This document shows positions 7,942-31,653 of a DNA stretch of 32,000 bases, piece after piece. Position 1 is the first letter of the stretch. Each line of letters starts with the position of its first letter. A program made the translations under genes and the position numbers. This DNA is from Candidatus Electrothrix sp. GW3-4 (GTDB taxonomy: Bacteria > Desulfobacterota > Desulfobulbia > Desulfobulbales > Desulfobulbaceae), in assembly GCF_037902255.1 (NCBI RefSeq), contig NZ_CP147990.1, positions 1,590,001 to 1,622,000 on the forward strand, in the 5' to 3' direction. The notes beneath the pieces were generated by a model, which did not search any database, was not told where the DNA came from, and saw only the letters and a list, made by a program, of their open reading frames with translations.

Positions 7942-7954
7942 TCTTCCCTCATCC

Positions 7955-12862: not shown

Positions 12863-15511
12863 ATGAGCAATCAGGAATTCTTGCGAGAAATCAGCATTCA
12901 TGGAACATCGTACAGGTTCTATAATATTCAGCTGCTGACTGATAAAGGGGTAAATGTCGCCCGTCTGCCTTTTTCCATCCGGGTGCTGGTGGAAAATATC
13001 CTCCGAAATATGAACGGGGGCACCGTGACCGAGAAAGATCTGGAGCAGATCAGTGGCTGGAAGCCCTGGTATATTGAGCCAGTGGAGATTCCCTATCATC
13101 CTGGTCGGGTTCTGATGCAGGATTTCACAGGGGTACCAGCGGTGGTGGATCTGGCCGCAATGCGGGATGCCATCAAAGAGCAGGGAGGTGATCCGCAAAA
13201 GATCAATCCGCTAATTCCAGTCGATTTGGTGGTTGATCACTCAGTACAGGTGGATTATTACGGGACGCCCCAGGCCTTGGAGCAGAACGTGGCTAAGGAA
13301 TATGAGCGCAATAGCGAGCGCTATGCCTTTCTGAAATGGGCGCAGCGAAATTTTGATAATTTTAAGGCCGTACCCCCTAACTCGGGTATTTGCCATCAGG
13401 TAAACCTGGAGTATCTCGCCCAGGTGGTGATGGCCGAACCAAAGCATAATCCGGATGATCCACCGCTGCTCTATCCAGACACCTTGGTTGGTACTGATTC
13501 CCACACCACTATGATCAACGGTGCCGGGGTCATGGGTTGGGGAGTAGGAGGGATTGAGGCAGAGGCGGTGATGCTGGGACAACCCTATTTCATGTCTATC
13601 CCTGAGGTGGTGGGCGTGCGCCTGACCGGCAAGCTCAGGCCCGGTGTGACTACCACGGATCTGGCCCTGACGATCACTCAGCTCTTACGGGAGCAGAAGG
13701 TGGTAGAGAAGTTTGTTGAGTTCTTTGGCCCAGGCAGCAAAAAACTCAATGTCATGGATCGGGCCACCATTGCCAATATGAGCCCGGAATACGGGGCCAC
13801 CATGGGCTTTTTTCCGGTGGATGAGCAAACCATTCAGTATCTGGAGATGACCAACCGGGCAGAACAGGCACGCATCACCGAAGCCTATAGCAGAGAGACG
13901 GGCTTATTTTATACTGGTGAGGAAACGCCTGAGTACAGCAAGGTCATTCATCTGGATTTGTCCTTTGTTGAACCCTGCTTGGCCGGGCCTTCTCGCCCCC
14001 AGGACAGGATTCCCCTGAGCGGGCTCAAATCCACGGTGTTTCCTGAGGAGGAGCAGAAAAGTATCTCCGTGCAGGTTGGTGAGCAGGAGATGACGCTAAG
14101 TAACGGTAGTATTGTTATCGCGGCCATTACCTCCTGCACTAACACCTCAAATCCCTTTGTCCTGATCGGCGCGGCCTTGCTGGCCAAGAAGGCTGTTGCC
14201 AGAGGTCTAACGGTGCCACCTCAGGTCAAGACCTCTTTTGCTCCTGGGTCCACAGTGGTTGCGGATTATCTTCGCAAGGCAGACTTGCTCAGCCCCTTGG
14301 AGAAACTCGGCTTTCATATCGCGGCCTTTGGTTGCACCACCTGTATTGGTAATAGCGGCCCCCTGGATCCCGCTCTTGAGCAGGCCATCACCGATAATGC
14401 CTTGTCGGTGGCCTCAGTGCTTTCCGGTAATCGCAATTTCGAGGCCCGGATTCACCAGAAGATCAAAGGGAATTTTCTGGCCTCCCCCATGCTGGTGGTC
14501 GCCTTTGCCCTCTGCGGTCGCATTGATATGGACCTGGAAAAGGAGCCGCTGGGACAGGATACCAAGGGAGAACCGGTTTTCCTCCGTGATATCTGGCCTG
14601 ATGAGGATAAAATTCAATCGCTTCTCAATAAGCATTTCAGCGATGAACTCTTTCAGCACAACTATGCCACTATATTTGACGGCGACACTCGCTGGCAGGC
14701 GATGCCAGTTGCCGGGGAAAACACCTTTCCCTGGGATGAATCCTCCAACTATATCAAGAAGCCGCCCTATTTTAACGAGTTCCAGCAGGAGATTTCCTCA
14801 GGTGAAGACAGCATAAAGGCACGGGCCCTCCTTCTCTTGACTGACTCCGTGACCACAGACCATATCTCTCCGGCAGGGGCTATCCCGGAGGCCTATCCTG
14901 CTGGCCAGTATTTATTAGGGCAGGGGGTGAACAAGGAGGAATTTAACTCCTATGGTTCACGACGTGGTAACCATGAGGTGATGATGCGGGGTACCTTTGG
15001 TAATATCAGAATAAAAAATCGACTGGTTGCGCCCAAAGAGGGCAGCTTTACCCGAAAATTTCCTGAGAATGAAGAGATGCCGGTTTATGAGGCGGCCATG
15101 AAATATCAGCAGGAAGGAACACCTTTGGTGGTGCTGGCAGGCAAGGAATACGGTACCGGTTCCTCCCGTGACTGGGCTGCCAAGGGAACTCAGCTGCTTG
15201 GGGTCAAGGCGGTGATCGCTGAATCCTACGAGCGAATCCATCGCAGCAACCTGGTGGGCATGGGGGTGCTGCCTCTTCAGTTCAGTGACGGGGAAAATTG
15301 GCAGAGTATCGGTCTGGACGGATCAGAGCTCTTTGTTTTGACTGGACTCCGTGAAGTGAAACCGGGAAAATCTCTGCTCGTGCGGGCGGAAAAGGCTGAC
15401 AGCACTGCCGTTGAATTCACAGTCCTCGCCAAGCTGAATACGAATATAGAGGTGACCTATTATCAACAAGGGGGAATTCTGCCCTATGTGTTGAGGAAGT
15501 TGCTGCATTGA
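12863..15511 (+). CDS. acnA: Aconitate hydratase A
   Basis: The protein is 882 aa. Its aconitase signatures are LVGTDSHTTMINGAGV, ITSCTNTSNP, GCTTCIGNSGP and SGNRNFEARIH. A strong RBS (AAGGAGattaagATG) precedes the start. Confidence 0.95.
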   Translation: MSNQEFLREISIHGTSYRFYNIQLLTDKGVNVARLPFSIRVLVENILRNMNGGTVTEKDLEQISGWKPWYIEPVEIPYHPGRVLMQDFTGVPAVVDLAAMRDAIKEQGGDPQKINPLIPVDLVVDHSVQVDYYGTPQALEQNVAKEYERNSERYAFLKWAQRNFDNFKAVPPNSGICHQVNLEYLAQVVMAEPKHNPDDPPLLYPDTLVGTDSHTTMINGAGVMGWGVGGIEAEAVMLGQPYFMSIPEVVGVRLTGKLRPGVTTTDLALTITQLLREQKVVEKFVEFFGPGSKKLNVMDRATIANMSPEYGATMGFFPVDEQTIQYLEMTNRAEQARITEAYSRETGLFYTGEETPEYSKVIHLDLSFVEPCLAGPSRPQDRIPLSGLKSTVFPEEEQKSISVQVGEQEMTLSNGSIVIAAITSCTNTSNPFVLIGAALLAKKAVARGLTVPPQVKTSFAPGSTVVADYLRKADLLSPLEKLGFHIAAFGCTTCIGNSGPLDPALEQAITDNALSVASVLSGNRNFEARIHQKIKGNFLASPMLVVAFALCGRIDMDLEKEPLGQDTKGEPVFLRDIWPDEDKIQSLLNKHFSDELFQHNYATIFDGDTRWQAMPVAGENTFPWDESSNYIKKPPYFNEFQQEISSGEDSIKARALLLLTDSVTTDHISPAGAIPEAYPAGQYLLGQGVNKEEFNSYGSRRGNHEVMMRGTFGNIRIKNRLVAPKEGSFTRKFPENEEMPVYEAAMKYQQEGTPLVVLAGKEYGTGSSRDWAAKGTQLLGVKAVIAESYERIHRSNLVGMGVLPLQFSDGENWQSIGLDGSELFVLTGLREVKPGKSLLVRAEKADSTAVEFTVLAKLNTNIEVTYYQQGGILPYVLRKLLH

Positions 15512-15624: not shown

Positions 15625-16692
15625 TCAATGTTGCGGATAATGCCTGTACCGATAAACAATATTCGTGAATCTGGAGCAACTGTCGTTTGTGCAGGTGCCG
15701 TTATGCCGCGCTTCGAACTTTTTTTGATCAATCGCGATAAAGAGATCGTGACCGGACAGGGCAACGCCCTCAATGCCTTGCAACACTGTTCCAGCGGGCG
15801 ACAAGGGCTGGGTTAAAAAAATTTGGCTGACCGTACCGTGGGACGACATACCGGTCGGCGGCGTCATCCTGATTTCCTGGAGCAGGAAGGCTCCGTTATT
15901 ATCTTTTCGGTCATATCCCTCATCATATAAGACAAAGAGGGTATCATAGGTCGAGGAGTAAAATAATGCTGAAATGGCTGCTGTTTTCAGTACTGATTCT
16001 GTAATGATTCCGGCACGCATGACCCTGGTCCCGTTTTGTTCCAGGTCGTACGCATATATTTTCCCTTTCCCCTTCTCTGCCTGGGTGGCAGCCAAGAATA
16101 AGCCATTGAAGCCGCCTGTCGAATCAGGAAAGGGGTGTTTTCCATCCGGCACAAAGGTCATCCCCTCCATCCCTCCTTCCCCTCTCTTGCCATTATGGGG
16201 AAGATCAGTGAGCTGCCAATTTTGACCGATATTGGCATTCGACCCTGCTGATAGCCGATTGCTTTTTTTCGGATCAGGGTTGGGATAATACTCGTAGATT
16301 GTTGGCATAATCGAGCTTTCATCTCCTTCAACATTGAGAAAGAGTGCGCCACCAACGGAAGTCATGCCTTCAAAATCGGTATCCACCAGCGAATCGACCT
16401 TATTCATATCCTGGTAATCAAGGGCCTTGCCCGTGTTGTTGTTTGCCCCCAGGCTGACCCGGGCGAGCTTGCCGTTGTCGCTTACTATATACAGATAGCC
16501 GCCTGCCCAGGATAAACCGCTCGGTTCGAAGTCAGTCCCGGAATCCTTTGTAAACAGCAGGGTGTTGCTTGGGCTTACGGGCCACGCGCACGGCCCGGAT
16601 GTGCAGGAAGGGGCCGTGGCGTTTGCAGTCGGAGTCATCAGCAATCCCCCCCAAGCGGCAGCCAACAATACTATAGCACGATTTTTTTTCAT
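15625..16692 (-). CDS. Secreted beta-propeller protein, phytase-like / SdiA-regulated-like
   Basis: I prefer the ATG at 16692 because it has a GGAG 8 nt upstream and gives a signal peptide (MKKNRAIVLLAAAWGGLLMTPTANA). Repeated blade motifs are present: FEPSGLSW..GYLYIVSDNG, FEGMTSVGGALF, MEGMTFVPDG and IEGVALSGHDLFIAID. Confidence 0.5.
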   Translation of the reverse strand: MKKNRAIVLLAAAWGGLLMTPTANATAPSCTSGPCAWPVSPSNTLLFTKDSGTDFEPSGLSWAGGYLYIVSDNGKLARVSLGANNNTGKALDYQDMNKVDSLVDTDFEGMTSVGGALFLNVEGDESSIMPTIYEYYPNPDPKKSNRLSAGSNANIGQNWQLTDLPHNGKRGEGGMEGMTFVPDGKHPFPDSTGGFNGLFLAATQAEKGKGKIYAYDLEQNGTRVMRAGIITESVLKTAAISALFYSSTYDTLFVLYDEGYDRKDNNGAFLLQEIRMTPPTGMSSHGTVSQIFLTQPLSPAGTVLQGIEGVALSGHDLFIAIDQKKFEARHNGTCTNDSCSRFTNIVYRYRHYPQH

Positions 16693-16741
16693 AACGATCT
16701 CCTTTTTTTCTTTGGCTGTCACTACGATCAATTTAAAATTA

Positions 16742-18460
16742 TTAAGAAAAATGAGTGTCCATCGTGTTGATACGACTTTGGATGGGCGGCACGGCTTGGT
16801 CATCGATCCACACATCAAGGACCGTTGGAACCTGTGCGCTCAGGATATCCTCAACCAACGAGGCGGTCAAGGTAACTTTGCCGTCGAGATGTATACCGCG
16901 CGCTCCCAGTCCTTCAGCAATTTTGACATAATCGACCCTTTGAAAACAAGTGCTCATGACATCTGGGATGGTTTCTTTCACGAGATGTCGACCGTGATAT
17001 ATCATGCCGAGCATGGCATTGTTCAAGACCACCCAGATCACCGGAATTTTGTAGTTGACTGCTGTGGCCACCTCGAAACCGTTCATCAGAAAGGAACCGT
17101 CCCCAACCATGGCCACTACCGGACGATCGGGTGACGCTAAACGAGCTCCCACAGGCGCGGCAACGGCATACCCCATGGAGCCGTAGCCCAGGGAAACAAA
17201 AAATGAACCGGGGTGAACAATGCTCATATAACGAATGGCCCAAGCCATAGAGGTGCCGATGTCTGCAAAGAATATACAATTTTCCGGGAAAAATTTTTGA
17301 ATATCAAACATTAATTGTGCAGGATGATAAAGGTCGTTTCCTGATGTGAACGTTTCCTTTGGAGTATGGCGTTGCCGTAGACCTTGCAGATGTTGGTTAT
17401 GGTGGGCGCTGTGATTTTTTTTCAGCGCAACCCCTTCTACCGCCTGGGCAAGCATTTTAAGATTTATTTGTGGATCACCTACCATGTGGTGTGATGCGCG
17501 ATAATTCTTTCCTATCTTTTCGATATCAACATCCAGATGAATCAGATGTTCGCTGGGCTGGAGATGCTCATCCCAGCCGTTAGTCATCATCTCACTGAAA
17601 CTGGTCCCCACTGCCAGAAGGACATCCACATCATTGTCAATGAGATATTCCTTGGCCAGGGGAGAGCCTGCAAATCCCAGAACCCCTAAGGAGAGTTCAT
17701 GGGATTCCGGGAACACTCCTTTGGCCTTTGGAGAAGTGGCCACCGGAATCTGGAGTCGTTCGGCCAGTTGCAGAAGCTCCGGCATGGCTTGAGAAAGATA
17801 GACTCCCCAACCGGCGATGATTGCCGGACGTCGGGCCTCAGCAAGGAGTTCAGCCACCTTATCCACCCGTTCCACGTCGAAAAGGCGTGTTTCTTCGGTG
17901 CCTGTTGATAGGAGAGATTCCCGTAGTTCGACAGGTCGTTTCATAATGTCGGCGGGCAGGTTGAGATGCACAGGGCCGCCTGGATTGCTCAAGGCGAGAC
18001 GAATGGCCTTGAGTAGCATATATTGAGCACGGCCCTCAGAGATCAGTATTCTGCTATATTTTGTAAAACTGCTGAATATCCGCATGAGATCAATCTGTTC
18101 TGATCCAGATTCCTGAAAGGCCCCTTTACCGAAGAGCGATGTGGCCACTTGACCGGTCAGGGCCAGTATCGGAATCTGGTCGACATATGATGATATCAGG
18201 CCGGTGATGAGATTGGAAGCTCCAGGACCGGCTGTGGCATAACATACGCCGAGCCTGCCCGAGACACGGGCATAGCCGTCAGCCATGAAGGCGGCACCTT
18301 CCTCGTGTTTGCTGACAATGGGAATAATATCATACGGGTTGTTGTCCAGGGCGGTATTGAGATCTTCAATGGCAGATCCAGGTACGCCGAACAAGTATTT
18401 TACTCCGGTTCGACCTAATATTTCGACAATCATCTCAGCGGTATTCATGCATTCTTCCAC
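16742..18460 (-). CDS. Thiamine-diphosphate-dependent enzyme of the acetolactate-synthase large-subunit family
   Basis: The N-terminal Pyr domain reads GVPGSAIEDL...HEEGAAFMADGYARVSGRLGVCYATAGPGASNL. The ThDP-binding motif is GDGSF-x24-NN (MVGDGSFLMNGFEVATAVNYKIPVIWVVLNNAMLG). The track start is the GTG at 18460. An ATG at 18448 is an alternative start. Confidence 0.85.
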   Translation of the reverse strand: MEECMNTAEMIVEILGRTGVKYLFGVPGSAIEDLNTALDNNPYDIIPIVSKHEEGAAFMADGYARVSGRLGVCYATAGPGASNLITGLISSYVDQIPILALTGQVATSLFGKGAFQESGSEQIDLMRIFSSFTKYSRILISEGRAQYMLLKAIRLALSNPGGPVHLNLPADIMKRPVELRESLLSTGTEETRLFDVERVDKVAELLAEARRPAIIAGWGVYLSQAMPELLQLAERLQIPVATSPKAKGVFPESHELSLGVLGFAGSPLAKEYLIDNDVDVLLAVGTSFSEMMTNGWDEHLQPSEHLIHLDVDIEKIGKNYRASHHMVGDPQINLKMLAQAVEGVALKKNHSAHHNQHLQGLRQRHTPKETFTSGNDLYHPAQLMFDIQKFFPENCIFFADIGTSMAWAIRYMSIVHPGSFFVSLGYGSMGYAVAAPVGARLASPDRPVVAMVGDGSFLMNGFEVATAVNYKIPVIWVVLNNAMLGMIYHGRHLVKETIPDVMSTCFQRVDYVKIAEGLGARGIHLDGKVTLTASLVEDILSAQVPTVLDVWIDDQAVPPIQSRINTMDTHFS

Positions 18461-18691
18461 CGGTGTTGTGCCGATGGCCTCTTTACAGATTGGCGGTCTT
18501 GATGAACCCGTTCAGGGGATAAACGGAAAGATGCTCTGAAAGATGGTTAATCTTATGTTATCCCTGATGGGAATACAAGGAACATGGTAAAGATGAGAAA
18601 CTGGGTAGAGTTATAAGAAAATGCGAACGAAAAATTCTTGGAGTGTTGTAATGCAGAAGACAAAAAAGGTACTGCATGGGGCAATCCCTGT

Positions 18692-20110
18692 TTAGGGAGA
18701 TTGTTTGTGCAGCAAGTCGGGAATTGTTTCCATTTCTTTTTCAACAGTATCTAGGAGATCACTTAACTTTTTTTCCTCATAGGAGGTTCTGCAAAACCCA
18801 ATAGTTATAGTGAGGGAATTGGCAAATCGCGTTGCGCCGATGAGGAGTAGAGGTGCATATACAACCGGTGCGCTCATAAAGGCGTCCGTTATTTCAAGTT
18901 CACCGAACTCCATATCCTTCCGGTCAAGAAGCCCCATGTTGGTAAACCAAGGGGGGGGGGCTTTCGAACCCAAGAAGCGGTTCAGCCTTAAAACGAAATT
19001 GTGAAATCCTCGTGCCAACGAAATTGGCAACCACTGTATCCTGAATATTGATTTTCTGGTGAGATGAAGACCAAAATAATTTTGTTTGTGGATCGTCATT
19101 TGTCTATGAACGAAAGATATTGTTTCCTCCAAGGTATCACCGAGATGCGTACCTATGTTCAGTAGGAACAGGTTAGCAAGATTGGTCACAGCCTCACCTC
19201 GGCGACCAGGAAGGTAACGGCGCAAATTTATAGTCACACCTAGCCGAAGCGGTGTCTTAAAATCCGGCTGAAGTATTTTATAAAGTCCGCGAAAGAGACA
19301 GGCCGTGAGAATATCGTTAACAGTGAAACCATGATGCGCGGCATATTGCTTGACCGGCCTGAACTGGTCACCAGAAATTCGGCGGATGAGAAAAGTTCGG
19401 TCAATAGTAGATTGCGGCAGAATAAAAGGAAATACCCAGTTTTTCCTGGGATAAAGATCGTCGAACCAGTTCCAAAGACTCAAGCGCAGGATTTTTAGTT
19501 TATCAGACAGATGAAGAAATTCTGTAACCTGTTCATACGAGCGTCTTCCTGTAAGATTTATTTGCGGTTTGAATGCAGCATCTCTCCCGATATTTCGGTA
19601 AATGAAGGCAAGAAGTCGGATGTATTCTTTTAATCCTCCGGCATCGGAAACTATATGATTCGCTTTTATACAAAGGATGTCTGACTCGGCTCGGAAAATA
19701 TGGATTTGGACCATTGGGTCGTTATAAGGATCATAGGGAGCAACCATATAGTTGATGAGAGCTTTTTCTGGACGATCAGTCTTCGTCACTCGACAAAATT
19801 CGAGCTTGTTAATGTCCTCTCGCCGTCGCCAAAACTGACGCCATCTGTTTTCAACAAGCTGGCAGCCCAGTACCGGTTCAGCATCCATGGACAGGCGGAC
19901 TGCTTTTGATAAGCGAACCTGATCAAGTTGACTGGCAAAAGTTATAACGCAATGAAGCTGTAGATCACAAATATGGCGGTTGACAGGAAGCGCCCTATCT
20001 CCTTTAACGGTTTTATACCGCAGAGGAACTGTCCGTAAATAATCTCGATCAACTGAGCGATTGACTTTTTTAGCCCTCTTCATGACTCCCCATGTACGGA
20101 TGATGTTCAC
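18692..20110 (-). CDS. Stand-alone condensation-domain-like acyltransferase (CAT/NRPS-C/PapA5/WS-DGAT superfamily)
   Basis: The protein is 472 aa. The motif NHIVSDAGG (verified at nt 19660-19634) fits the HHxxxDG acyltransfer signature with the first His replaced by Asn. No adenylation or carrier domain is fused to it. Confidence 0.55.
   Translation of the reverse strand: MNIIRTWGVMKRAKKVNRSVDRDYLRTVPLRYKTVKGDRALPVNRHICDLQLHCVITFASQLDQVRLSKAVRLSMDAEPVLGCQLVENRWRQFWRRREDINKLEFCRVTKTDRPEKALINYMVAPYDPYNDPMVQIHIFRAESDILCIKANHIVSDAGGLKEYIRLLAFIYRNIGRDAAFKPQINLTGRRSYEQVTEFLHLSDKLKILRLSLWNWFDDLYPRKNWVFPFILPQSTIDRTFLIRRISGDQFRPVKQYAAHHGFTVNDILTACLFRGLYKILQPDFKTPLRLGVTINLRRYLPGRRGEAVTNLANLFLLNIGTHLGDTLEETISFVHRQMTIHKQNYFGLHLTRKSIFRIQWLPISLARGFHNFVLRLNRFLGSKAPPPWFTNMGLLDRKDMEFGELEITDAFMSAPVVYAPLLLIGATRFANSLTITIGFCRTSYEEKKLSDLLDTVEKEMETIPDLLHKQSP
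18941..18950. repeat. G10 (C10 on the coding strand) homopolymer inside the acyltransferase CDS
   Basis: Counted directly: ccaa + 10 G + cttt. On the minus strand it reads GCC CCC CCC CCT TGG, which encodes A-P-P-P-W (..SKAPPPWFTN..). The tract is in frame in this assembly. Confidence 0.95.
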
Positions 20111-20198
20111 AGCACGTCAAACTCACCGAAAAGCCTGTTCATGCAGATGAATGGTGTGTTTTGCCAGCAGGGGTTAGGTTGCACAAGACCTGTACCGG

Positions 20199-20921
20199 TC
20201 ATAAGATATTGGCACCCCCGTCAACCAGCCAGACACTGCCTGTCACATAGGTTGCTTCCAGCTGGGCCCATACCACTTGAGCAACTTCTTCGGCTCGACC
20301 ATAGCGTTGCAGGGGAATGATCTGCTCCAGCATGGTCCTTCGTCTCGCAAGTTCCTCTTTACTGCGCCCTGTTTTTGCTGCCAAGGGCGTATCAATGGCA
20401 CCAGGGGCAACGGCATTAACGCGAATCTTTTTCGGGGCCAGTTCCAAGGCAAGGCTTCGGGTGGTGGCTTCCAGGGCCCCCTTGGTTGCAGCGTAAAGTG
20501 AACCGTTGAGCAGTCCCCTGTTAACGGCTATGGAAGAAATATTGGTGATGCGTCCCTGTCTTTTTTCCAAAGCCGGTAAGACTTCTCGGATTAATTCCAA
20601 GGGACCTCGAATATTGGTGTTGAAAAAAAATGAATAGTCAGAAGGGGATAATCTACTTAACGGAATAAACTTCGCTATGGCAGCATTGTTTATCAAGACA
20701 TCTAAACCCTCATCCTGAAACGGAAGGGACAAACGCTTAATATCATCAAGTTTAGCCATATCGGCAAGTATATATTCAACCCCTATCTCCGCAGCAGCTC
20801 TCTTTACCCTGTCCCTGTGACGACCGGATATAACAACCGAATATCCCTTTTTCTTTAACAAAGTAGCTGTTGCGTAACCGATGCCGGAGTTGCCACCTGT
20901 TATCAAAGCTGTTTTTTTCAT
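20199..20921 (-). CDS. Short-chain dehydrogenase/reductase (classical SDR)
   Basis: The protein has TGGNSGIGYA (the TGxxxGxG motif), NNAA, and the Ser...YAATK catalytic motif. It is 240 aa long. Confidence 0.9.
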   Translation of the reverse strand: MKKTALITGGNSGIGYATATLLKKKGYSVVISGRHRDRVKRAAAEIGVEYILADMAKLDDIKRLSLPFQDEGLDVLINNAAIAKFIPLSRLSPSDYSFFFNTNIRGPLELIREVLPALEKRQGRITNISSIAVNRGLLNGSLYAATKGALEATTRSLALELAPKKIRVNAVAPGAIDTPLAAKTGRSKEELARRRTMLEQIIPLQRYGRAEEVAQVVWAQLEATYVTGSVWLVDGGANIL

Positions 20922-20996
20922 TTTATACCCGTTTTTTCTCAGGACTATAAGTCTATGGAAACTTCATGATGTAGCTGAGTGCTTAATGAGAAGAGT

Positions 20997-22037
20997 TTAC
21001 GCAGGTTTTCTCCCTGTAATAATAGACCAGTCACCAAAACCGGTCTTTTGGGCTTTTATATCTATAAACCCTACGGTTCTCAGCAGCTCGTTGAGTTCTT
21101 TTGCGGAAAACTGTTGTCCTTTTGCCCACAACAACATGAATATATTATAGGCAGCCACTGGATAGGGACCTGTCTTGTCATCATCAAAGAGCATTTCATG
21201 GATAATAATCCGACCTCCAGGTTTAAGGCTTTCAAAGCTTTTTTCTGTAAGAAATGTACATTGTTTCGGCGTCCAATCATGGAAAATATCACTGTAAAAA
21301 TGTAGATCCGCCTCAGGAAAATTATCTTGCCACATATCGCCAGCATAAGTTCTAATTTTGTCTTGTAGGCGAAATTTGTTGATAAATTCTTTAGCGACAT
21401 CACAAACTACAGCTCTGTCATAAACAATCGCTTGTAATCTGGGCCAGGAAAGAACTGCCCCGATGGAATGCGCTCCTGAGCCCCCCCCAACATCTAACAT
21501 GCATATGTTATCAGTAAGGTCTACAATAGAAGGCCAAGCAGAAGCAGGCCCCATGCTTTTACAGTGCATTGATTTGGTGAACCCCTTAGCGAATTCTGCT
21601 TTCTTTTCATTGGTCTCAAAAAGATCTTCACCTCCATACACTTGGGCTCTATTGGTCATAAGGGCCTTTTTAAAACTTTCAAACGAATAGACCTCACTCA
21701 ACTGCCACCCCCTGTCCAGAATGCTGCCAAAATACGTCGGGCTTTCCTCAAGGAGATAATCTTTTGATATATCGGTCAGAGTATAACGTTTTTCTTTGGT
21801 GAGACCTATGAAGTTTTGACTTACCAGCATAGACAGCATGGCTTGGGCGGCACGAGGAGCAATATTGTATTCCTCGCAAATTTCTACAATGCTTAAGGGT
21901 TTCTTTGAAAGCAATTTAAATAGGTTCATATTATGGGCAACAAACAAGGCTTGTGCCCCTGCAAGGCCATATAAAACATTCAGCAAGGGGCTATCGTCTA
22001 CGCAGGGTTTTTGAATATTTGAAATTTCAAATTTCAA
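20997..22037 (-). CDS. SAM-dependent O-methyltransferase (family-2 type with an N-terminal dimerisation/winged-helix domain)
   Basis: The SAM motif is LDVGGGSGAHS, and the catalytic-base context is SDIFHDW. The overall length (346 aa) and N-terminal helical domain are typical of small-molecule OMTs. Confidence 0.8.
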   Translation of the reverse strand: MKFEISNIQKPCVDDSPLLNVLYGLAGAQALFVAHNMNLFKLLSKKPLSIVEICEEYNIAPRAAQAMLSMLVSQNFIGLTKEKRYTLTDISKDYLLEESPTYFGSILDRGWQLSEVYSFESFKKALMTNRAQVYGGEDLFETNEKKAEFAKGFTKSMHCKSMGPASAWPSIVDLTDNICMLDVGGGSGAHSIGAVLSWPRLQAIVYDRAVVCDVAKEFINKFRLQDKIRTYAGDMWQDNFPEADLHFYSDIFHDWTPKQCTFLTEKSFESLKPGGRIIIHEMLFDDDKTGPYPVAAYNIFMLLWAKGQQFSAKELNELLRTVGFIDIKAQKTGFGDWSIITGRKPA

Positions 22038-22065
22038 GGAATTTCACCTGTAATTATAATAAGAT

Positions 22066-22932
22066 TTATAAAATATTTTTTTGCTGGCTACTGCTTGCCT
22101 GCGGTACCGGCCGAGGCATTTTCCCCTGGTAGTCAATATCCCCGCACCGAAGAGGGAAAAAAGTTTCAGGTGGCGAATCGTTTGCTTCTGTATAACAGGC
22201 AAGAACTCCAGCATGTACGACAGGACTCAATAAACGATAGATTTCTATAGATGTTAGTCCTTGATCCGATAGAAATGCGCACCGATATCCGCCGATATTC
22301 ATGCGTTCATTAAATTTTTCAATCAATACTTCCTCAATCTCATATGCTAAAGCAAGATGTTCTCCAACTTCGAATCCGAGATTCTTTGTGACCCGTTCCA
22401 TAGCAGGAACCCTCTCGTCTCCAATAGCTAATGGTCTAATATAGCCTATAATTTTTGGAGAGGAAGAAGGGGTTCTCTGTTTTTCAGCAATGATTTCTTC
22501 AACCGATATGCCTTTCTTTTTTTTTGTTAAGGCAGTTGTAATAAATTTCGTTGCCTCCATTGTCGTTCTCGGGCCATACATAATGGAATCCGAAGCCAGT
22601 ATTCCGGCTCCAACAGCGGCAAGCGGCGATGTCTGCATGGTACCTGCTAAACTGCCAGCTTGGTTACACCAGATGCGGGGATCTGGCCAGCTCAAGCAGA
22701 TAAAGTAAGCTTCGAGCCAGTCGGTCAATTTTCGTTTGGGCAGGCGACCGGTCACATTAAGAAATAAGACCTGGAAAAAGGAAGCCGTTCCAACGAGGTC
22801 ATCCAGCATGGAATAACCATGGTTATGGATAGCTTCGTTGATGACCCAGCCGCCTTTTTTTGTGTGGATAAAGCCACGACGGCTGTCCCAGAAAGAAGTG
22901 TCATTTTTTACGGGCTTGTTCTGCAATGACAT
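22066..22932 (-). CDS. Citrate synthase / citryl-CoA lyase-fold protein, divergent paralogue B
   Basis: The sequence HGYSMLDDLVGTASFFQVLFLNVTGRLPKRKLTDWLEA matches the family N-terminal pattern GYD..L...SF.E..YLLL.G.LP. Later segments align by eye to the PLHG, PGYGH..DPR and NVD regions, but the catalytic residues are substituted (see finding). Confidence 0.55.
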   Translation of the reverse strand: MSLQNKPVKNDTSFWDSRRGFIHTKKGGWVINEAIHNHGYSMLDDLVGTASFFQVLFLNVTGRLPKRKLTDWLEAYFICLSWPDPRIWCNQAGSLAGTMQTSPLAAVGAGILASDSIMYGPRTTMEATKFITTALTKKKKGISVEEIIAEKQRTPSSSPKIIGYIRPLAIGDERVPAMERVTKNLGFEVGEHLALAYEIEEVLIEKFNERMNIGGYRCAFLSDQGLTSIEIYRLLSPVVHAGVLACYTEANDSPPETFFPLRCGDIDYQGKMPRPVPQASSSQQKNIL

Positions 22933-23728
22933 AATGTTCCTCGTCTAAAAACGGCATAGCGGTTTTAGGTTTATTTGCCAATTCAAGGCCATGTGCCAAA
23001 ATTCCTGGTGCCCGGAGAATTTGAAAGAGCCCTGCCCCGGACCGGGGATGAAAGCCGAGATCACAAAATACTGCGGCAGCAAGACCGGTATCCAGCCAGC
23101 CCATCCCTTGCGGACGAAGTGCTGCAGCAAACTTTTGGCCCCATTTGATAACCTTACCCGCTGCGGAAAATCCAGCCAAAAGGTCGGCAAGCTGTTGCGG
23201 TAGAGGATCAATACCACTGAACCGGCTTCCAAAACCCGGCGCTACATGCCAATCACCCTCATCAGGTCGAGAAAAGGATAACAATTCATCCGCATGTTCC
23301 GTTGTATTTTTTTTAGAATTTTTCCATAAAAATCGCATGGCTGCCGAGACTTCTTCTCCGCCAAGGTATGCTCCACTTAGCACGGCCAGGCCGGTGGGGA
23401 GGATATGGGCTGGGTTAGCCTTACCTACTGCTGCATTCATGGATGCCCTAGTTGCCGGATGTCGGGGGCCGGGATTAACCAGTGCGATCATCAACCGTTC
23501 AAGGAGTTGGGCCTGATTTGGGTCCGGCAGCTCTCCCTGAAACAAGAGAAACAATACATCAACAAAGGAACGTTTTTTTGCCAGTTCCAAAATATCATAG
23601 CCATGGCATCGGCATTTTTCGGCCAGATAGGGATTTTCCGGTAAGGGTTCTTCCTGCCAGATCCTGGTAACTGTGCGGTCGGTGAATTGCTCGTCTCTTT
23701 TGCGCACCTGGAATTTTTGTTTGGTCAT
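22901..23728 (-). CDS. Citrate synthase / citryl-CoA lyase-fold protein, divergent paralogue A
   Basis: Family-like segments are CHGYDILELAKKRSFVDVLFLLFQGELPDPNQAQLLE, APGFGSRFSGIDPLPQQL, GWLDTGLAAAVFCDLGF and FQILRAPGILAHGLE. Its TGA at 22903-22901 lies 32 nt inside paralogue B, whose ATG is at 22932. Confidence 0.6.
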   Translation of the reverse strand: MTKQKFQVRKRDEQFTDRTVTRIWQEEPLPENPYLAEKCRCHGYDILELAKKRSFVDVLFLLFQGELPDPNQAQLLERLMIALVNPGPRHPATRASMNAAVGKANPAHILPTGLAVLSGAYLGGEEVSAAMRFLWKNSKKNTTEHADELLSFSRPDEGDWHVAPGFGSRFSGIDPLPQQLADLLAGFSAAGKVIKWGQKFAAALRPQGMGWLDTGLAAAVFCDLGFHPRSGAGLFQILRAPGILAHGLELANKPKTAMPFLDEEHYVIAEQARKK

Positions 23729-23792
23729 TTTTCTCGCTACCTATCTAGATTATGATGTTTTTGTCAATGACAGGTCGTTGTTAGCTGAGTCG

Positions 23793-25988
23793 TCAAAAAT
23801 GATATATCAACTCTGCATAAAGAGACCTGCTCTCCATCGGTATGTCATAGGGAATATCCGATGGAGTCGGTTCGCGAATATTTTCATTGAGGAGATTACG
23901 AACCCCAACTGCTAAGTTGATGTGTTTGGTGATTTTTTTTCTTTGTATCATCATGTTAACGAGACTATAATTATTGATTTCCTCCCGGTCGTCATTTTCC
24001 GCTCTTTGGCGGTCGCCAATCCAATAATATTGGGCATTGAGATACCAATCCGGCATAAAATTCCAGTTTCCGTTGAGATAGAACTGAATCCCTGGTGCAT
24101 CGGCGACAAGGGCATCTGTATCTTTATCCTTGGACCGTTGATAGGCTAAATTAGTATTTATCTTGAAGGAGGGAGTTAATTCCCATTCCAGCTCGATCTC
24201 AACCCCCTGTCCCTTTTGATTGATAGCGTTTTGTGCAGTTTCGGTGGTAGCCGGAGCTGGGTCGGCAACGTAATCAATGAGCCCGTCAATATCATAGGCA
24301 AAGAGGCTTACAATTGTTCTCAGAGAATGGATGGGGCTGTAGTCAAAGGCAAGCTCATAGGTGTCAATGGTTTCAGGATCAAGATCAGGATTACCCAAAA
24401 AGATTGGATTGTTTTCCAAGTAACTTTCCGCGAAAGAAGGGGGGCGAAATGCATGGCCGTACATAAGCTTGCTGGTCAGATCGTAGCGTGTTTCCCAGAC
24501 CAGAGCGATGCGCGGATTAACCGTATTTCCGAAATCACTGTAATGATCGTAACGTACTCCGGCAGTAAGCTCCCAGTCTTTAGCAAAAGACCATTCATCC
24601 TGGAGAGAGGCATAGAGAACCGTACGGTTTTGATCGGGCATAAATATGTCCTTATCATTTACTGTTGGTCCTATTAATTTTCCATCCGTACTCACGGTGA
24701 GCTCATCGTTGTCTAGAACGCCCGGACCGAAATTTTTGTACTCTTCAGTTGTTTCATCCTGTATTTTTCCTCCAATGCCTATACGCCAGTTCTGCCGGTT
24801 CCACCCATCGTATTTCGTGATAGCATCAAATGTCAGCTGTTGGTCAATAAGAATCGGTTCACCAAGCATACCATCGGTAAAAGTCGTGACTCCTGCTGTT
24901 AGTGAGGTAAAGAGGTTCCCGTCAGCACCGATGGCAACGGTTGATCCGGGTGGTAGAAGTTGGTATAGGACATCATCCTTACGGTAGAGATAGCTCAATT
25001 GCAAGGTGAGACCAAGATTATTGGTCAGCTCATCATCACTCCAAGTTATATCACCTAAAATTTGATCGTTGTTCACCCTGGTTTCTGGCCCTAAGGCCCC
25101 TGCACTGCCGGTCCCCCCTTCATAATCATTCAGGAACCAACCCCAGAGACGAATTGTCCAGTTTTTGCGATTGAAGTTCGCCATGAGATTGTAATTCTCA
25201 AAATCAGTATGCAAGGGACCTGGTGCCAAGGAGGCATTGGTGCCAAAGATCTGATCCAGCTTTGTCTGGAGGTCGGCGTCTATGATCCGTTTATCGTCAC
25301 TGCCACCTCGCCAGTACTCTATTCCGATGCCAACGTCCCAGCCTTTGTACCGCCCTCCGTGTTGTCCCCAAACATCCAGGCCGTCAAAGGAAGAGATGCG
25401 GACACCGGTATACATTCCTTCGACTTCAAAGCGGTCCTTAGTGATAATATTAATAGTGCCAGCAAAGGCGTCAGCACCGTAGAGGGCAGATCCTGGTCCT
25501 CGTACGACTTCAATACGAGATATCATGGAGACAGGAAGGCGAAAGCCTGATGGACGGCTACCGTTATATGGTTTGGTAAAGGGAATGCCGTTCATCAAGA
25601 CTAAGACTTGGGGATTCAGGCTGGTATGGATGCCGCGTATGGAATAGATAGGGTCAAGATGGACATAGGACGGTGTCACATGGAGCCCCGGCACAGTTTC
25701 CAGTACCTCATCCAGGGTGGTGGCACCAAGTTTTTCGATATCCTCCGCTGTGATGACCGAGGCCACAGAAGGGGCGAGGTAGACAGGCTTCAGGCTACCC
25801 GTTGCTGTGAGCAAAAGACGATCATTCCGGTAGACATCCTCTTCCTGGGGGCCCTGTCCGAACATATCTTCAAAGGCCTGAACTTCTTCCTCGCTTATCA
25901 GAGAATTTTCGTTCTCTGATTTGGCGTTTCCTCGCGTATAATTTAATAAGAGGAGGAAAATAACGATAGCGACAGTTATTTTGTCCAT
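23793..25988 (-). CDS. TonB-dependent outer-membrane receptor
   Basis: A signal peptide is followed by a TonB-box-like DRLLLTATG and a plug domain (VITAEDIEKLGATTLDEVLETVPGLHV...IEVVRGPGSALYGADAFAGTINIITK). A long beta-barrel ends in YAELIYHF, with a terminal aromatic residue. Confidence 0.9.
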   Translation of the reverse strand: MDKITVAIVIFLLLLNYTRGNAKSENENSLISEEEVQAFEDMFGQGPQEEDVYRNDRLLLTATGSLKPVYLAPSVASVITAEDIEKLGATTLDEVLETVPGLHVTPSYVHLDPIYSIRGIHTSLNPQVLVLMNGIPFTKPYNGSRPSGFRLPVSMISRIEVVRGPGSALYGADAFAGTINIITKDRFEVEGMYTGVRISSFDGLDVWGQHGGRYKGWDVGIGIEYWRGGSDDKRIIDADLQTKLDQIFGTNASLAPGPLHTDFENYNLMANFNRKNWTIRLWGWFLNDYEGGTGSAGALGPETRVNNDQILGDITWSDDELTNNLGLTLQLSYLYRKDDVLYQLLPPGSTVAIGADGNLFTSLTAGVTTFTDGMLGEPILIDQQLTFDAITKYDGWNRQNWRIGIGGKIQDETTEEYKNFGPGVLDNDELTVSTDGKLIGPTVNDKDIFMPDQNRTVLYASLQDEWSFAKDWELTAGVRYDHYSDFGNTVNPRIALVWETRYDLTSKLMYGHAFRPPSFAESYLENNPIFLGNPDLDPETIDTYELAFDYSPIHSLRTIVSLFAYDIDGLIDYVADPAPATTETAQNAINQKGQGVEIELEWELTPSFKINTNLAYQRSKDKDTDALVADAPGIQFYLNGNWNFMPDWYLNAQYYWIGDRQRAENDDREEINNYSLVNMMIQRKKITKHINLAVGVRNLLNENIREPTPSDIPYDIPMESRSLYAELIYHF

Positions 25989-26014
25989 ATTTTTTCTCCC
26001 TTATCCTGTAAATT

Positions 26015-26965
26015 TCAATCAATGATTTGTGTCGCCATATCAAGGGAAGCTTGGCGGAGTTTCAGTCCTATACGTTGAGCGGTCGTCTGGTTAATGATAA
26101 TCTGCGTCCCCAAAGGGGCCATCACCCCGATAAGATCCGGGCGTTGATGACGGTTGATGATATTTTTTGCCATTGAGGCTGCCTGTGAACCGATATCGCT
26201 GATATCTGGGTTAATGGAAAGTACAAGACCGTGTTCAGCGATGTTTTTTGACTGACCGATACAGGGTAATTTTCCCTTGATACAGCGTGTATTAAGCCAA
26301 TCCATATTGTCGAGAGTGTAGAGAACTGGGTCGTTCAGAACAAAAAAGGCATCAATTTTTCGCCTGATCTTTTTGAAATGAAGTTTAAAATCCGTTGGCC
26401 GGTCGATTTCCTTACCGTACAGTTCAATGTTGAAAATCTCAGCGGCTTCTTTGGCCCGTTGCAGTGTCTCACGGCTGTATGAGCTGTATATCACTCCTAT
26501 TCGTTTGATACCAGGAGACAGTATTGTAATATTCGCAAACTTTGTCCCAGGAGCTATTTCGGCGGCAATGCCAGCCATATTTTTCTGATCAAGGAGGTTA
26601 TATCTCTTCCAATTCAAGACCATAGCAAAGAGCACCGGGATTTCCTGATACTCTCTGGTCCAGAGTTTGGCCGTAAAGGCTGCTTTGGCGCCTAAGGCAA
26701 ATATTAATCGAGGATGGATAGAGAGGAGTTTCTCTTTCAGCAGAGGATCCTTTTTTATATCACCTTGCAAATTAAAGAGAGACACAGGGGAGTCAATTTC
26801 AGCACGAAATGCCTCCACCGGTTCGTTATAAACGGAATCATTATCGGAGAGCAGGACGGCTACCGGAGGGGGATTGTCAGCAGCATGAAGTAATACCGGC
26901 AGTAACCCGTAGATAACCGACAGGGCAAGTGTAATTATTTTAGCGCGAATAGTTATGCCATGCAT
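26015..26965 (-). CDS. Periplasmic binding protein of the ABC_sub_bind type
   Basis: I prefer the ATG at 26965, which gives the signal peptide MHGITIRAKIITLALSVIYGLLPVLLHA. The pattern PVAVLLSD...IFALGAKAAFTAK...IPVLFAMV...NMAGIAAEI...IKRIGVIYSS fits this family. Confidence 0.6.
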   Translation of the reverse strand: MHGITIRAKIITLALSVIYGLLPVLLHAADNPPPVAVLLSDNDSVYNEPVEAFRAEIDSPVSLFNLQGDIKKDPLLKEKLLSIHPRLIFALGAKAAFTAKLWTREYQEIPVLFAMVLNWKRYNLLDQKNMAGIAAEIAPGTKFANITILSPGIKRIGVIYSSYSRETLQRAKEAAEIFNIELYGKEIDRPTDFKLHFKKIRRKIDAFFVLNDPVLYTLDNMDWLNTRCIKGKLPCIGQSKNIAEHGLVLSINPDISDIGSQAASMAKNIINRHQRPDLIGVMAPLGTQIIINQTTAQRIGLKLRQASLDMATQIID

Positions 26966-27770
26966 CGACTTGCAACATCTCCATGAGATCAGCAGAATCA
27001 TCGGAGTGTGTCGCCTCTAAAAATTTTTTTTTCAACTTCATAACTTTTTCACCTGGAACACCCACATTTCCTACGCAAAGTATAGGCAATGGAATGGGCT
27101 GTGACTTAGCCAGCGGATGAACAATTTGTAAGATATGGGGATTGATTTCTCCGATTTTTTGTAAATTATTTTCGGAAACCAAGGCTACATCCACCTGCCG
27201 CATAGCCAAGGCAAACAGGGCATCTGAATCCTTTGGTGTTGTAATAATGTTTAATGCATTTGCTGTGATCTTAAATTGATTAAAAATAATACGGTCCAGC
27301 ACATCAGGGGCGTTGTTGCCCATGGTCGTCATGGCGAGGGTTTTATTGCGCAGACCCTGTAAAGTGAGTTGCGAGTCTTTGGCTGTCAGCAGAACCTTGT
27401 GATATGTTGCCTGTCCCTTACGTACAGGTTGCAGAAGTGGCTGTAGCCCATTTTTTTTATTTTGCCGAAAATACCACTCTGGAAGAAAAACAAATGCAGG
27501 AGAGGTTTTCATCATTTCACGATGAAAATCATGGTATTTGGCAAAGGGTTGAAAAGTGAGGGTAAAAGCGTTTTTTTGCAGAAAACGTTCCATCTCCTGC
27601 TTCAGGCGAACGAGATTGCTTTGTGAGGAGTCGGGATTGAAGTAGTAAAATTTTTTATTGTCATTTTGGGTAGCGTGACCGATACGAGGTATGCATGTTG
27701 CGCCACATAATATAATGAGCAATACTCTGATGATGATAATAATGTCTGTCTTGAAAGATATATTTTTCAC
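26940..27770 (-). CDS. PhnD-like (phosphonate-binding-fold) periplasmic binding protein
   Basis: The start codon is GTG. An N-terminal hydrophobic signal is present. The pattern FQPFAKYHDFHREMMKTSPAFVFLP...YHKVLLTAKDSQLTLQGLRNKTLAM...ALAMRQVDVALVS resembles PhnD-type binding proteins. The gene overlaps the next gene by 26 nt. Confidence 0.5.
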   Translation of the reverse strand: MKNISFKTDIIIIIRVLLIILCGATCIPRIGHATQNDNKKFYYFNPDSSQSNLVRLKQEMERFLQKNAFTLTFQPFAKYHDFHREMMKTSPAFVFLPEWYFRQNKKNGLQPLLQPVRKGQATYHKVLLTAKDSQLTLQGLRNKTLAMTTMGNNAPDVLDRIIFNQFKITANALNIITTPKDSDALFALAMRQVDVALVSENNLQKIGEINPHILQIVHPLAKSQPIPLPILCVGNVGVPGEKVMKLKKKFLEATHSDDSADLMEMLQVDAWHNYSR

Positions 27771-27989
27771 TCGGTCTTATGACGTGCGTTGGTAATCCTT
27801 TCAATACAAAGAGCGCAGAAAGAGGGAGAGCCAAGCCAGAGGATGCAAAGGATAATTAAAGAGAGGCTCGCCTTTCTTTTTTATAGGTCTACAATAGTTA
27901 TATTGAAAAAGCAAGAAACCGATGGCAAAAAAATAGATTTTTTTTCGCTAAAATGGGGTGATGCGTGGTTTTTCAAGAAGGGGCGGGGT

Positions 27990-28020
27990 GTCTTTTTCCT
28001 TCTGTACGAGGGAAAAAGAC
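27990..28020. promoter_or_regulatory. Perfect 10-bp inverted repeat in the long leader of the receptor/biosynthetic locus
   Basis: GTCTTTTTCC (27990-27999) is separated by an 11-nt spacer (TTCTGTACGAG) from GGAAAAAGAC (28011-28020). The repeat lies 220-250 nt upstream of the first gene's start at 27770. Confidence 0.4.
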
Positions 28021-28178
28021 AAAAGAGACGGCAAAGTCTTGCCGATTTGTGGACCTGTTTTTTTTCCAATTTTAACGCGTAGGGAAAAATTGATGGAAAA
28101 CGGGTGGAAATGCAGAGCAAAGGCTGTAAGAAAAGAAACTCATTGACTATGAGAGATTTCTCTTCTGCTGGGCGATAG

Positions 28179-28193
28179 TTTTTTTTGGGGGGG
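28179..28193. repeat. T8G7 compound homopolymer (C7A8 on the minus strand)
   Basis: Counted directly: gatag + 8 T + 7 G + caag. It is intergenic, lying 76 nt past the DUF2301-like stop codon and upstream of the receptor locus. Confidence 0.95.
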
Positions 28194-28268
28194 CAAGAAG
28201 ACAGCTATAAAATGACTGAAGCTGGGTTTGAATTGCTCAAAGCATTATGTTGCACCCCCATGATGTTG

Positions 28269-30860: not shown

Positions 30861-30875
30861 GGGTAATATCCTTGG

Positions 30876-31460: not shown

Positions 31461-31653
31461 AACACGACCTCTGAGTTGGTATTTTGCTGGATTGTATCGG
31501 ATCGGTTGCCAAATCTGAGCGGGAAAGGTAGTATTGCCTTCGTACAAAGATGATAGATATTTTTTACTCTATTTTCTCAGGAAAAACAATGGAGCTGGTA
31601 TGGATTCGCCTAAGGAATCTTGTGCTAATCCGTGCAGTGCCAAACTGATTCCA

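Follow-up and report, generated by a model that had tools for sequence, protein, structure and literature searches.

A conserved gene cassette associating a putative ThDP-dependent carboligase and a divergent citrate-synthase-fold pair with a TonB-dependent receptor in cable bacteria and other bacterial lineages

We analyzed a stretch of 32,000 nucleotides from the cable bacterium Candidatus Electrothrix sp. GW3-4 (contig NZ_CP147990.1, positions 1,590,001 to 1,622,000; hereafter the window), in which ten genes follow one another on the minus strand. In order, they encode a PhnD-like and an ABC_sub_bind-family periplasmic binding protein, a TonB-dependent outer-membrane receptor, two paralogues with the citrate synthase (CS) fold (here CSa and CSb), an O-methyltransferase, a short-chain dehydrogenase/reductase (SDR), a condensation-like acyltransferase, a thiamine diphosphate (ThDP)-dependent enzyme and a secreted phytase-like protein. 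An initial annotation had read the run as a candidate receptor-linked small-molecule system. Our results partly support that interpretation: its central idea holds, but the phytase-like gene is probably no member, the Claisen-type chemistry proposed for the CS pair is doubtful, and in cable bacteria the CS pair proved to be a swappable module. Nine of the ten genes belong to a conserved system, whose gene arrangement is far beyond chance. Under our best reading, cable bacteria carry in this run their own version of a cassette that has spread horizontally, and on balance we lean towards a cassette that would make a small molecule and then recapture and sense it.

Searching one genome per species with CSa as anchor, we found relatives in 166 of 185,579 species; 80 loci were fetched and compared by tblastn and clustering of open reading frames (ORFs). 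Counts out of 40 given below refer to the full-flank set, that is, the species genomes with at least 8 kb on either side of CSa. The receptor was present in 39 of these 40 loci (and directly beside the CS pair in 57 of 77 loci), CSb in 38, and the ThDP enzyme in 36. A periplasmic binding-type protein (PF04392, PF12974 or DUF4154) accompanied all 40, and a sensor kinase 38, the Electrothrix loci having none. Other genes were less constant: SDR (13/40), sulfotransferase and/or APS kinase (7/40), O-methyltransferase (3/40) and the condensation-like gene (3/40). The proposed tie between the enzyme set and a TonB-dependent receptor thus holds, as does the co-occurrence of the CS pair with the receptor and the ThDP enzyme, but the O-methyltransferase and the condensation-like gene seldom accompany the pair.

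The carriers include Electrothrix, Desulfurivibrio, Desulfocapsa, Desulfuromonadaceae, Trichloromonas, Geoalkalibacter and Nitrospirota, as well as Gallionella, Sideroxydans, Sideroxyarcus, Ca. Tenderia, Chromatiales and Cellvibrio. The core was syntenic in Desulfobulbales, Desulfuromonadales, Nitrospirota, Gallionellaceae, Chromatiales and Cellvibrio, so the neighbourhood is kept across phyla. We also searched metagenome contigs in reverse, with the ThDP enzyme as anchor. Relatives with at least 75% identity sat in the same cluster, and those at 43-45% identity were mostly without receptor and CS pair. Many relatives at 32-36% identity formed a divergent clade with the same gene order: ThDP enzyme, CSa' (30-40% identical), CSb', receptor and ABC_sub_bind protein, followed, where the contig reaches, by a protein of about 1500 aa with a HAMP-kinase-Hpt-receiver-GGDEF-EAL architecture. 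Together with the synteny, this suggests that the linkage of enzymes, receptor and periplasmic sensing is ancient or has been repeatedly transferred as a unit. The genes of the cluster have a G+C content of 41-50% and their neighbours of 51-58% (52-58% for the efflux pump, aconitase and DnaB-like genes described below), which is consistent with horizontal acquisition.

The ThDP enzyme matched three domains (PF02776, PF00205 and PF02775), and both the catalytic glutamate (KHEEGAAF) and the ThDP-binding motif (GDGSFLMNG...VVLNN) can be read in its translation, as expected for a member of this superfamily. Its score with the acetolactate synthase model TIGR00118 was 393.6, under the cut-off of 538, and we found no gene for an ilvN/ilvH-like small regulatory subunit in the window. 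The nearest solved relatives were BbmA from Brevibacillus (PDB 8x3x; 446 bits, 41% identity) and CsmA; acetohydroxyacid synthase (AHAS) I of E. coli matched with only 248 bits. By sequence similarity, the enzyme is placed in the BbmA clade and not among acetolactate synthases. A literature search returned no publication on BbmA or CsmA.

A homologue 88% identical to BbmA sits between a 105-aa ORF and a KASIII-like gene, an arrangement that resembles the carbazole pathways, where an acyloin formed by the ThDP enzyme NzsH or CqsB3 is followed by the action of a second C-C-forming enzyme on an acyl thioester (PMC7466098). The cassette enzyme shares with BbmA and the NzsH/CqsB3-type acyloin synthases a three-domain, acetolactate synthase (ALS)-like architecture and, as with the BbmA homologue and NzsH/CqsB3, it is paired with a second enzyme potentially forming C-C bonds. 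The partner there is a KASIII enzyme, whereas here it would be a CS-fold heterodimer. By analogy, the CS pair may be the second partner, using an acyl-CoA or carboxylate substrate.

CSa, with counterparts at 84-85% identity in Ca. Electrothrix and Desulfobulbus sp. US4, and CSb both had the Hydrogenobacter citryl-CoA lyase (CCL; PDB 6hxp) as best match, either as single sequences (E = 1e-19 for CSa and 1.6e-8 for CSb) or as family profiles (E = 1e-26 and 2e-14). The profile matches to 6hxp assign the two proteins to the citrate-synthase-type all-alpha fold, and the two family profiles matched each other with 97% probability (hhalign). We also built an AlphaFold2 model of CSa from a 14-sequence alignment (mean pLDDT 64), which was used for fold confirmation only; in Foldseek, this low-confidence model retrieved CCL, ATP-citrate lyase (ACL) and CS structures first, with 6hxp at the top. 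Fold and size (about 270 aa) are common to CSa, CSb, 6hxp, the CCL module of ACL and CS.

The resemblance does not extend to the catalytic residues. The His of the CCL motif GHR and the Asp of VDG were lost in every member of both families; in CSa from the window, GSR and DTG replace them. Across all 83 CSa sequences, S/P/T/N stand in place of His and T/P/V/S in place of Asp; the 76 CSb sequences all have A/G/I/V and N/G/A/L there, respectively, the divergent clade being included in both counts. We take these positions to correspond to His320 and Asp375 of CS, and the Asp to D1026 of ACLY; the Asp of VDG is the residue changed in the ACLY-D1026A structures among the Foldseek matches. Motifs unlike those of CCL and CS have become invariant instead: CxCHGYD, NPGPRHP and AHGLE in CSa, and WPDxRIWCNQ, RPxxxGDER and two Cys in CSb. 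The invariant residues are G43, Y44, N85, G87, R89, G165 and E249 in CSa (C41, H246 and D223 being near-invariant), and R86, W88, R166, P167, D172, E173, R174, D223, C246 and C263 in CSb. Since the canonical His and Asp are replaced family-wide, the Claisen-type chemistry first proposed for the pair is doubtful. Judging from these residues, CSa and CSb do not qualify as canonical citrate synthases or citryl-CoA lyases.

Active sites in the CCL/citrate synthase family lie at the dimer interface, which fits the finding that CSa and CSb are paired, translationally coupled and occasionally fused. We identified a natural CSa-CSb fusion (P0250) and a natural 885-aa ThDP-CSa fusion (P0368) with a CSb-like gene next to it (L135, 8001-11542). 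CSa and CSb differ from CCL and CS also in being an obligate two-paralogue unit, tied to a receptor and a ThDP enzyme and not to carbon fixation. These sequence features suggest that the two probably form a heterodimer, which may work with the ThDP enzyme. The contig with the ThDP-CSa fusion also encodes a SET-domain protein and a nicotinamide mononucleotide transporter, and has no TonB-dependent receptor within 8 kb, so that the enzymatic trio can exist without a receptor.

In public annotations, CSa appears as "citrate synthase" and the ThDP enzyme as "acetolactate synthase", and an aconitase gene adjoins the cassette in the window; the run could therefore be seen as a chance grouping of primary-metabolism genes with an unrelated receptor. 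This explanation is effectively refuted by the family-wide loss of catalytic residues, by the scores of all curated models, which fall under cut-off (NCBIfam best scores of 91.6 against 212 for CSa and 52.7 against 245 for CSb), by the lack of an AHAS small subunit, and by the tight synteny with the receptor across phyla. The CSa family is also rare: besides the few carrier species, only 147 clusters at 50% identity (E <= 1e-30) were found among 1.84 billion. None of the enzymes proved to be an orthologue of a characterized primary-metabolism enzyme.

Across loci, the tailoring repertoire comprises O-methyltransferase, SDR, acyltransferase, sulfotransferase with APS kinase, carbamoyltransferase, B12-radical-SAM enzymes and ABM monooxygenase. 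About one cassette in three has an orthologue of the SDR (55-84% identity), those of Gallionellaceae and Gammaproteobacteria among them, and the O-methyltransferase varies even among close relatives. Variation in cable bacteria was particularly clear. A constant Electrothrix spine (PhnD-like protein, ABC_sub_bind protein, receptor, SDR, acyltransferase and ThDP enzyme) encloses a middle module that changes from genome to genome. It consists of CSa, CSb and the O-methyltransferase in the window and in Ca. E. aarhusensis (L003); of CSa and CSb in Ca. E. communis; of an ABM monooxygenase and a sulfotransferase in Electrothrix sp. Rat3; and of two B12-radical-SAM enzymes, a sulfotransferase and an ABM monooxygenase in Ca. 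E. laxa (OW818652). Outside these genomes, a metagenome contig from Desulfobulbaceae (L085) carries a sulfotransferase and a carbamoyltransferase at this place. In cable bacteria, the middle module formed by the CS pair, alone or together with the O-methyltransferase, can therefore be swapped. The hypervariable slot of the otherwise syntenic locus spans 4481-9038 in Ca. E. laxa (L136) and 7476-9109 in L137, which has only the ABM monooxygenase and the sulfotransferase.

Whichever module is present, the receptor, binding proteins and ThDP enzyme are about 66-86% identical to those of the window. No co-diversification of receptor and ligand was visible in this comparison, receptor identity being 73-81% with any middle module. 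Among large or closed Electrothrix genomes, a common chromosomal slot, which follows a DnaB-like and a DUF2301 gene, houses the cassette of Ca. E. aarhusensis, Ca. E. communis, Ca. E. marina (L002) and Electrothrix sp. Rat3; the slot comparison was limited to these genomes, as the upstream flank of Ca. E. laxa lay beyond the fetched stretch.

The acyltransferase missed the PF00668 cut-off of 30.6 bits narrowly (28.9), and its C-terminal half matched TIGR02946 (E = 9e-6). Compared with the HHxxxDG motif of condensation domains, its motif NHIVSDAGG retains the second His and the Asp, and its homologues carry mostly PF00668 in precomputed Pfam annotation. The family counts 29 homologues, mostly from Electrothrix cassettes, and the gene is also found between receptor and CSa in Desulfurivibrionaceae (L019, L020). 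Its frame is broken in L002, L003 and L001, the last being a sister assembly of the window from the same sequencing run. The frameshift sites differ between Ca. E. marina (L002, 12939-14254) and Ca. E. aarhusensis (L003, 13645-14951), and in the closed genome of Ca. E. communis (L138, 10001-11653) two separate ORFs (389 and 91 aa) are called for the gene, which together suggests recurrent decay of the acyltransferase in genomes with the CS pair.

The DNA of the window was also present in a Logan assembly of run SRR28154589. The sister assembly L001 matches the window over 16 kb except at two homopolymers. The first, inside the acyltransferase gene (18951-18960), is G10 in the window, leaving the ORF whole, and G11 in L001, where the ORF is split into 321 and 61 aa; the second, upstream of the cluster at about 28186, is C7A8 in the window and C9A8 in L001. 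These differences could be slipped-strand variation or assembly error. We considered phase variation through the G10 run and rejected it, as the run is strain-specific, without a counterpart in any other Electrothrix genome that was checked, and might stem from faulty assembly.

The swapping of anabolic tailoring genes points to biosynthesis of a diversified small molecule and argues against catabolism. In a catabolic or scavenging system, an external compound would be captured, sensed and then cleaved in the cytoplasm by the ThDP and CCL-fold enzymes acting as C-C lyases. ThDP enzymes and citryl-CoA lyase are both capable of C-C cleavage, and receptor, binding proteins and sensor are typical of substrate-acquisition loci. 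However, no conserved inner-membrane transporter would supply the cytoplasmic enzymes, the accessory genes (O-methyltransferase, sulfotransferase with APS kinase, carbamoyltransferase, acyltransferase, B12-radical-SAM) are anabolic, and the 88% homologue of BbmA lies in a biosynthetic-type context. We thus regard catabolism as improbable.

The receptor shows the features expected of a TonB-dependent receptor, with plug and barrel domains, an N-terminal signal sequence and a C-terminus ending in YHF. It scored below cut-off in every specific NCBIfam model (siderophore, haem, B12), its best sub-threshold matches being haem and siderophore receptor families. In Desulfobulbales, and in every Electrothrix locus examined, the PhnD-like gene accompanies the cassette; its product scored only 26 bits with TIGR03431 (cut-off 261). 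Neither an ABC permease nor an ATPase turned up among the sizeable ORFs of the window, and no such partner of the PhnD-like protein recurred in related loci. More generally, polytopic membrane proteins lie in the cassette or within 3 kb of it in only 9 of 70 loci; a dedicated exporter or inner-membrane importer is not part of the system. This scarcity fits periplasmic sensing better than cytoplasmic uptake.

The kinases beside the cassette include sCache and HAMP kinases, a PAS hybrid kinase-receiver and a DUF4154-kinase-receiver fusion; as outputs they have receiver, Hpt and GGDEF-EAL domains instead of DNA-binding regulators. The combination of a receptor with orphan binding proteins and with kinases or cyclic di-GMP (c-di-GMP) enzymes fits periplasmic detection of an imported ligand. 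Solute-binding proteins are known to stimulate signal-transduction receptors as well as transporters (PMC10443332).

If the cassette does make and sense its own product, a cytoplasmic BbmA-related ThDP carboligase would join 2-oxo acids into an acyloin or alpha-hydroxy-beta-keto-acid scaffold. The CSa/CSb heterodimer would act with it, probably in physical contact, and would most likely extend or process the scaffold from an acyl-CoA or carboxylate substrate by non-canonical chemistry, while the SDR, O-methyltransferase and condensation-like acyltransferase could decorate a hydroxyl or keto group. The released product would re-enter through the outer membrane via the dedicated receptor and be captured in the periplasm by the pair of orphan binding proteins. 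These would, in almost every other lineage, pass the signal to the adjacent sensor kinases, hybrid kinases or c-di-GMP enzymes; cable bacteria keep the binding proteins but have no kinase within 10 kb.

Clusters of this general kind, combining biosynthesis, a TonB-dependent receptor and two-component sensing, are already known. In Pseudomonas aeruginosa, the receptor PfeA brings a secreted small molecule to the periplasm, where the histidine kinase PfeS of the PfeS/PfeR pair detects it. The clustering of biosynthesis, receptor and sensor is common to both. The cassette differs in having no nonribosomal peptide synthetase (NRPS) or NRPS-independent siderophore (NIS) chemistry, in the orphan binding proteins (PF04392, PF12974, DUF4154) interposed between receptor and sensor, in outputs that are often hybrid phosphorelays or GGDEF-EAL proteins, and in having no linked inner-membrane permease. 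The receptor-linked kinase itself is present in the full-flank loci of other lineages (38 of 40), but lacking within 10 kb in the window and in the Electrothrix loci.

The initial annotation was reminded of siderophore or metallophore loci, and a nutritional role deserves weighing: the product could be a hydroxy-carboxylate-type chelator, with the receptor importing its metal complex and the kinases only regulating uptake, as PfeS/PfeR do for ferric enterobactin. The likeness is real as far as the architecture (biosynthesis, receptor and two-component system, as in known siderophore loci) and the receptor's best sub-threshold matches are concerned. Siderophores, too, typically show exchange of tailoring genes between strains, and the CS fold with an aconitase gene nearby (in the window, L002, L003, L056 and L136) evokes citrate-like ligands. 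On the other hand, CSa and CSb are without the citrate synthase catalytic residues, the aconitase adjacency is not conserved, and there is no conserved inner-membrane importer. No Fur-box-like site was found upstream: the best matches in the window had at least 5 mismatches and lay within coding sequence, with none in the intergenic stretch upstream of the cassette (27771..28268), although this is a weak test for this phylum. Many carriers (Gallionellaceae, sulfidic-sediment Desulfobulbales) live amid plentiful Fe(II), and the kinase outputs are not DNA-binding regulators but feed into c-di-GMP. With kinases or c-di-GMP enzymes beside the cassette in 38 of 40 loci, sensing is indicated no less than metal nutrition. 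Overall, we consider a metallophore role unlikely, albeit the best of the alternatives.

The lack of an evident exporter and a WS/DGAT-like (wax ester synthase/diacylglycerol acyltransferase) acyltransferase allow a further explanation, in which the binding proteins and the barrel would move a hydrophobic product outwards or display it, by analogy with the sterol carrier BstB. BstB was indeed the best NCBIfam match of the PhnD-like protein, at only 34 bits and far under the cut-off of 350. Moreover, TonB-dependent receptors normally import, and the near-universal adjacent kinases favour sensing. We deem such envelope trafficking very improbable. Like catabolism and accidental primary-metabolism adjacency, it is less likely than production and sensing of a small molecule.

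A more specific version of that preferred reading, which we advance only tentatively, is that the cassette could represent a new class of self-produced extracellular signal with its own TonB-dependent gate. The acyloin scaffold would be built by the ThDP carboligase and a neofunctionalized CS-fold heterodimer, and strain "dialects" would arise from swapped modules (CS pair and O-methyltransferase; B12-radical-SAM; sulfotransferase and ABM monooxygenase). After entering through the dedicated receptor, the product would be read by binding-protein-dependent kinases and c-di-GMP enzymes. LuxP/LuxQ senses autoinducer-2 (AI-2), and CqsA/CqsS and LqsA/LqsS are systems of alpha-hydroxyketone signalling. 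The cassette would resemble them in combining a periplasmic binding protein with a kinase and in a self-produced small signal, and the proposed acyloin would itself be an alpha-hydroxyketone, as with CqsA and LqsA. It differs in that the proposed signal would come from a ThDP carboligase and not from the pyridoxal phosphate-dependent CqsA or from LuxS. We know of no described autoinducer system with a dedicated TonB-dependent gate.

Several points weigh against a cassette that makes and senses its own product. The whole case rests on comparative genomics. The ThDP enzyme and receptor occur together without the CS pair in L115, L116, L085, Ca. E. laxa and Electrothrix sp. Rat3, so the pair is not indispensable. 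Having lost the catalytic His and Asp, CSa and CSb might be regulatory or scaffolding proteins and not enzymes, and the structural model of CSa is poor (see its pLDDT above). With no kinase near the cassette of the window, the sensing half is extrapolated from other lineages, and with no conserved exporter, release of the product is assumed. The window also has an operon for resistance-nodulation-division (RND) efflux (5333-12534, plus strand: a cNMP-binding/DUF4388 protein, then TolC-like, HlyD-like and AcrB-type genes), separated from the end of the cluster by about 3 kb that include the aconitase gene. The operon could conceivably export the product; it is not conserved with the cassette elsewhere.

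Our literature search found no published description of the cassette, in line with the initial view that the gene combination is not a described pathway; its enzymology and the wiring of its binding proteins and kinases are apparently undescribed in the literature found. If our reading is correct, the cassette would represent a new biosynthetic logic, in which a ThDP carboligase works with a CS-fold pair devoid of canonical catalytic residues. Genome-mining rules keyed to NRPS, polyketide synthase (PKS) or NIS cores would probably overlook it. Because the cassette is firmly linked to a receptor and orphan binding proteins, and to kinases and c-di-GMP enzymes, it would offer a testable route from molecule to behaviour. 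Its carriers, among them cable bacteria, the iron-oxidizing Gallionellaceae, Ca. Tenderia and Desulfuromonadales, are ecologically important and difficult to study, and little is understood of how they communicate chemically and acquire metals. Were the product a signal, it could coordinate filament, biofilm or motility behaviour in cable bacteria, iron oxidizers, Desulfuromonadales and sediment bacteria. Meanwhile, the public labels "citrate synthase" and "acetolactate synthase large subunit" mislead metabolic reconstructions of the carriers.

The layout of the locus is given in Table 1. All ten ORFs of the run (15625-27770) were found where the initial annotation had placed them, and profile searches reproduced its domain assignments for all ten. 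With realistic starts, the junctions from the PhnD-like to the phytase-like gene measure -26, 26, 64, -32, 28, 75, 88, 231 and 49 nt, which agrees with the earlier values except for one, 25 nt then and 26 nt here. Signal peptides were detected on four proteins, namely both binding proteins, the receptor and the phytase-like protein. As originally proposed, no NRPS, PKS or NIS domain was found by profile search in any sizeable ORF of the window, and no NRPS or NIS adenylation, carrier or synthetase gene was among the recurrent families of the 80 related loci. Rfam and tRNA scans of the window were empty. Promoter and terminator counts in the window did not exceed the shuffled expectation, and operon boundaries cannot therefore be set from sequence.

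Table 1. Genes of the run and the adjoining intergenic stretch (coordinates in the window).
Feature	Coordinates	Strand	Evidence and remarks
PhnD-like periplasmic binding protein	26940..27770	-	PF12974, 75 bits; signal peptide
ABC_sub_bind-family periplasmic binding protein	26015..26965 (longest ORF to 27001)	-	PF04392, 77 bits; signal peptide
TonB-dependent outer-membrane receptor	23793..25988	-	PF07715 and PF00593; signal peptide, plug, barrel, C-terminal Phe
CSa, citryl-CoA-lyase/citrate-synthase fold	22901..23728	-	PF00285, 39 bits; without catalytic His and Asp
CSb, paralogue of CSa	22066..22932	-	no Pfam match; NCBIfam only sub-threshold; 32-nt overlap with CSa
S-adenosylmethionine (SAM)-dependent O-methyltransferase	20997..22037	-	PF00891 and PF08100 (dimerisation domain)
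Short-chain dehydrogenase/reductase (SDR)	20199..20921	-	PF13561 and PF00106; TGxxxGxG and YxxxK motifs
Stand-alone condensation/WS-DGAT-like acyltransferase	18692..20110	-	PF00668, 28.9 bits; motif NHIVSDAGG
ThDP-dependent carboligase (putative), BbmA clade	16742..18460 (probable start 18448)	-	three TPP domains
Secreted phytase-like protein	15625..16692	-	PF13449, about 43-44 bits; signal peptide
Intergenic stretch upstream of cassette, about 500 nt	27771..28268	-	terminator-like hairpin of the DUF2301 gene, presumed cassette promoter, C7A8 run

Among the neighbours, the phytase-like gene had been counted as part of the set. We found no homologue of it in the related loci compared, the closest Electrothrix relatives included, and it was rejected as a member: adjacent, but probably not part of the system. 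On the other side of it, an AcnA-type aconitase gene (12863-15511, plus strand) adjoins the cassette, as it does in L002, L003 and Ca. E. laxa (L136, 13346-16018). In an unrelated gammaproteobacterial metagenome-assembled genome (L056, 2601), an aconitase gene lies on the same strand, directly upstream of the ThDP gene. We rejected aconitase as a pathway member, given that in Ca. E. communis and Electrothrix sp. Rat3 its place is taken by TrpA; the adjacency is either a coincidence or an occasional functional link. A phosphonate pathway, suggested by the combination of PhnD-like protein, ThDP decarboxylase, CS-like enzyme and aconitase, was also discarded: phosphoenolpyruvate (PEP) mutase was found neither in the window nor among the annotated recurrent families of the cassette.

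Farther from the cassette, a 417-aa ORF (1383-2636, minus strand) combines NuoB-like (Oxidored_q6) and NuoC-like (Complex1_30kDa) domains, thus encoding a fused NuoB-NuoC, and adjoins nuoA (2627-3010). Beyond the opposite end of the cassette, the window encodes a 597-aa DnaB_C/AAA_25 helicase-like protein (29067-31547, minus strand), whose N-terminal 340 aa have no domain match. This protein is 90% conserved in Electrothrix, and its neighbour is a putative endonuclease of the Uma2 family.

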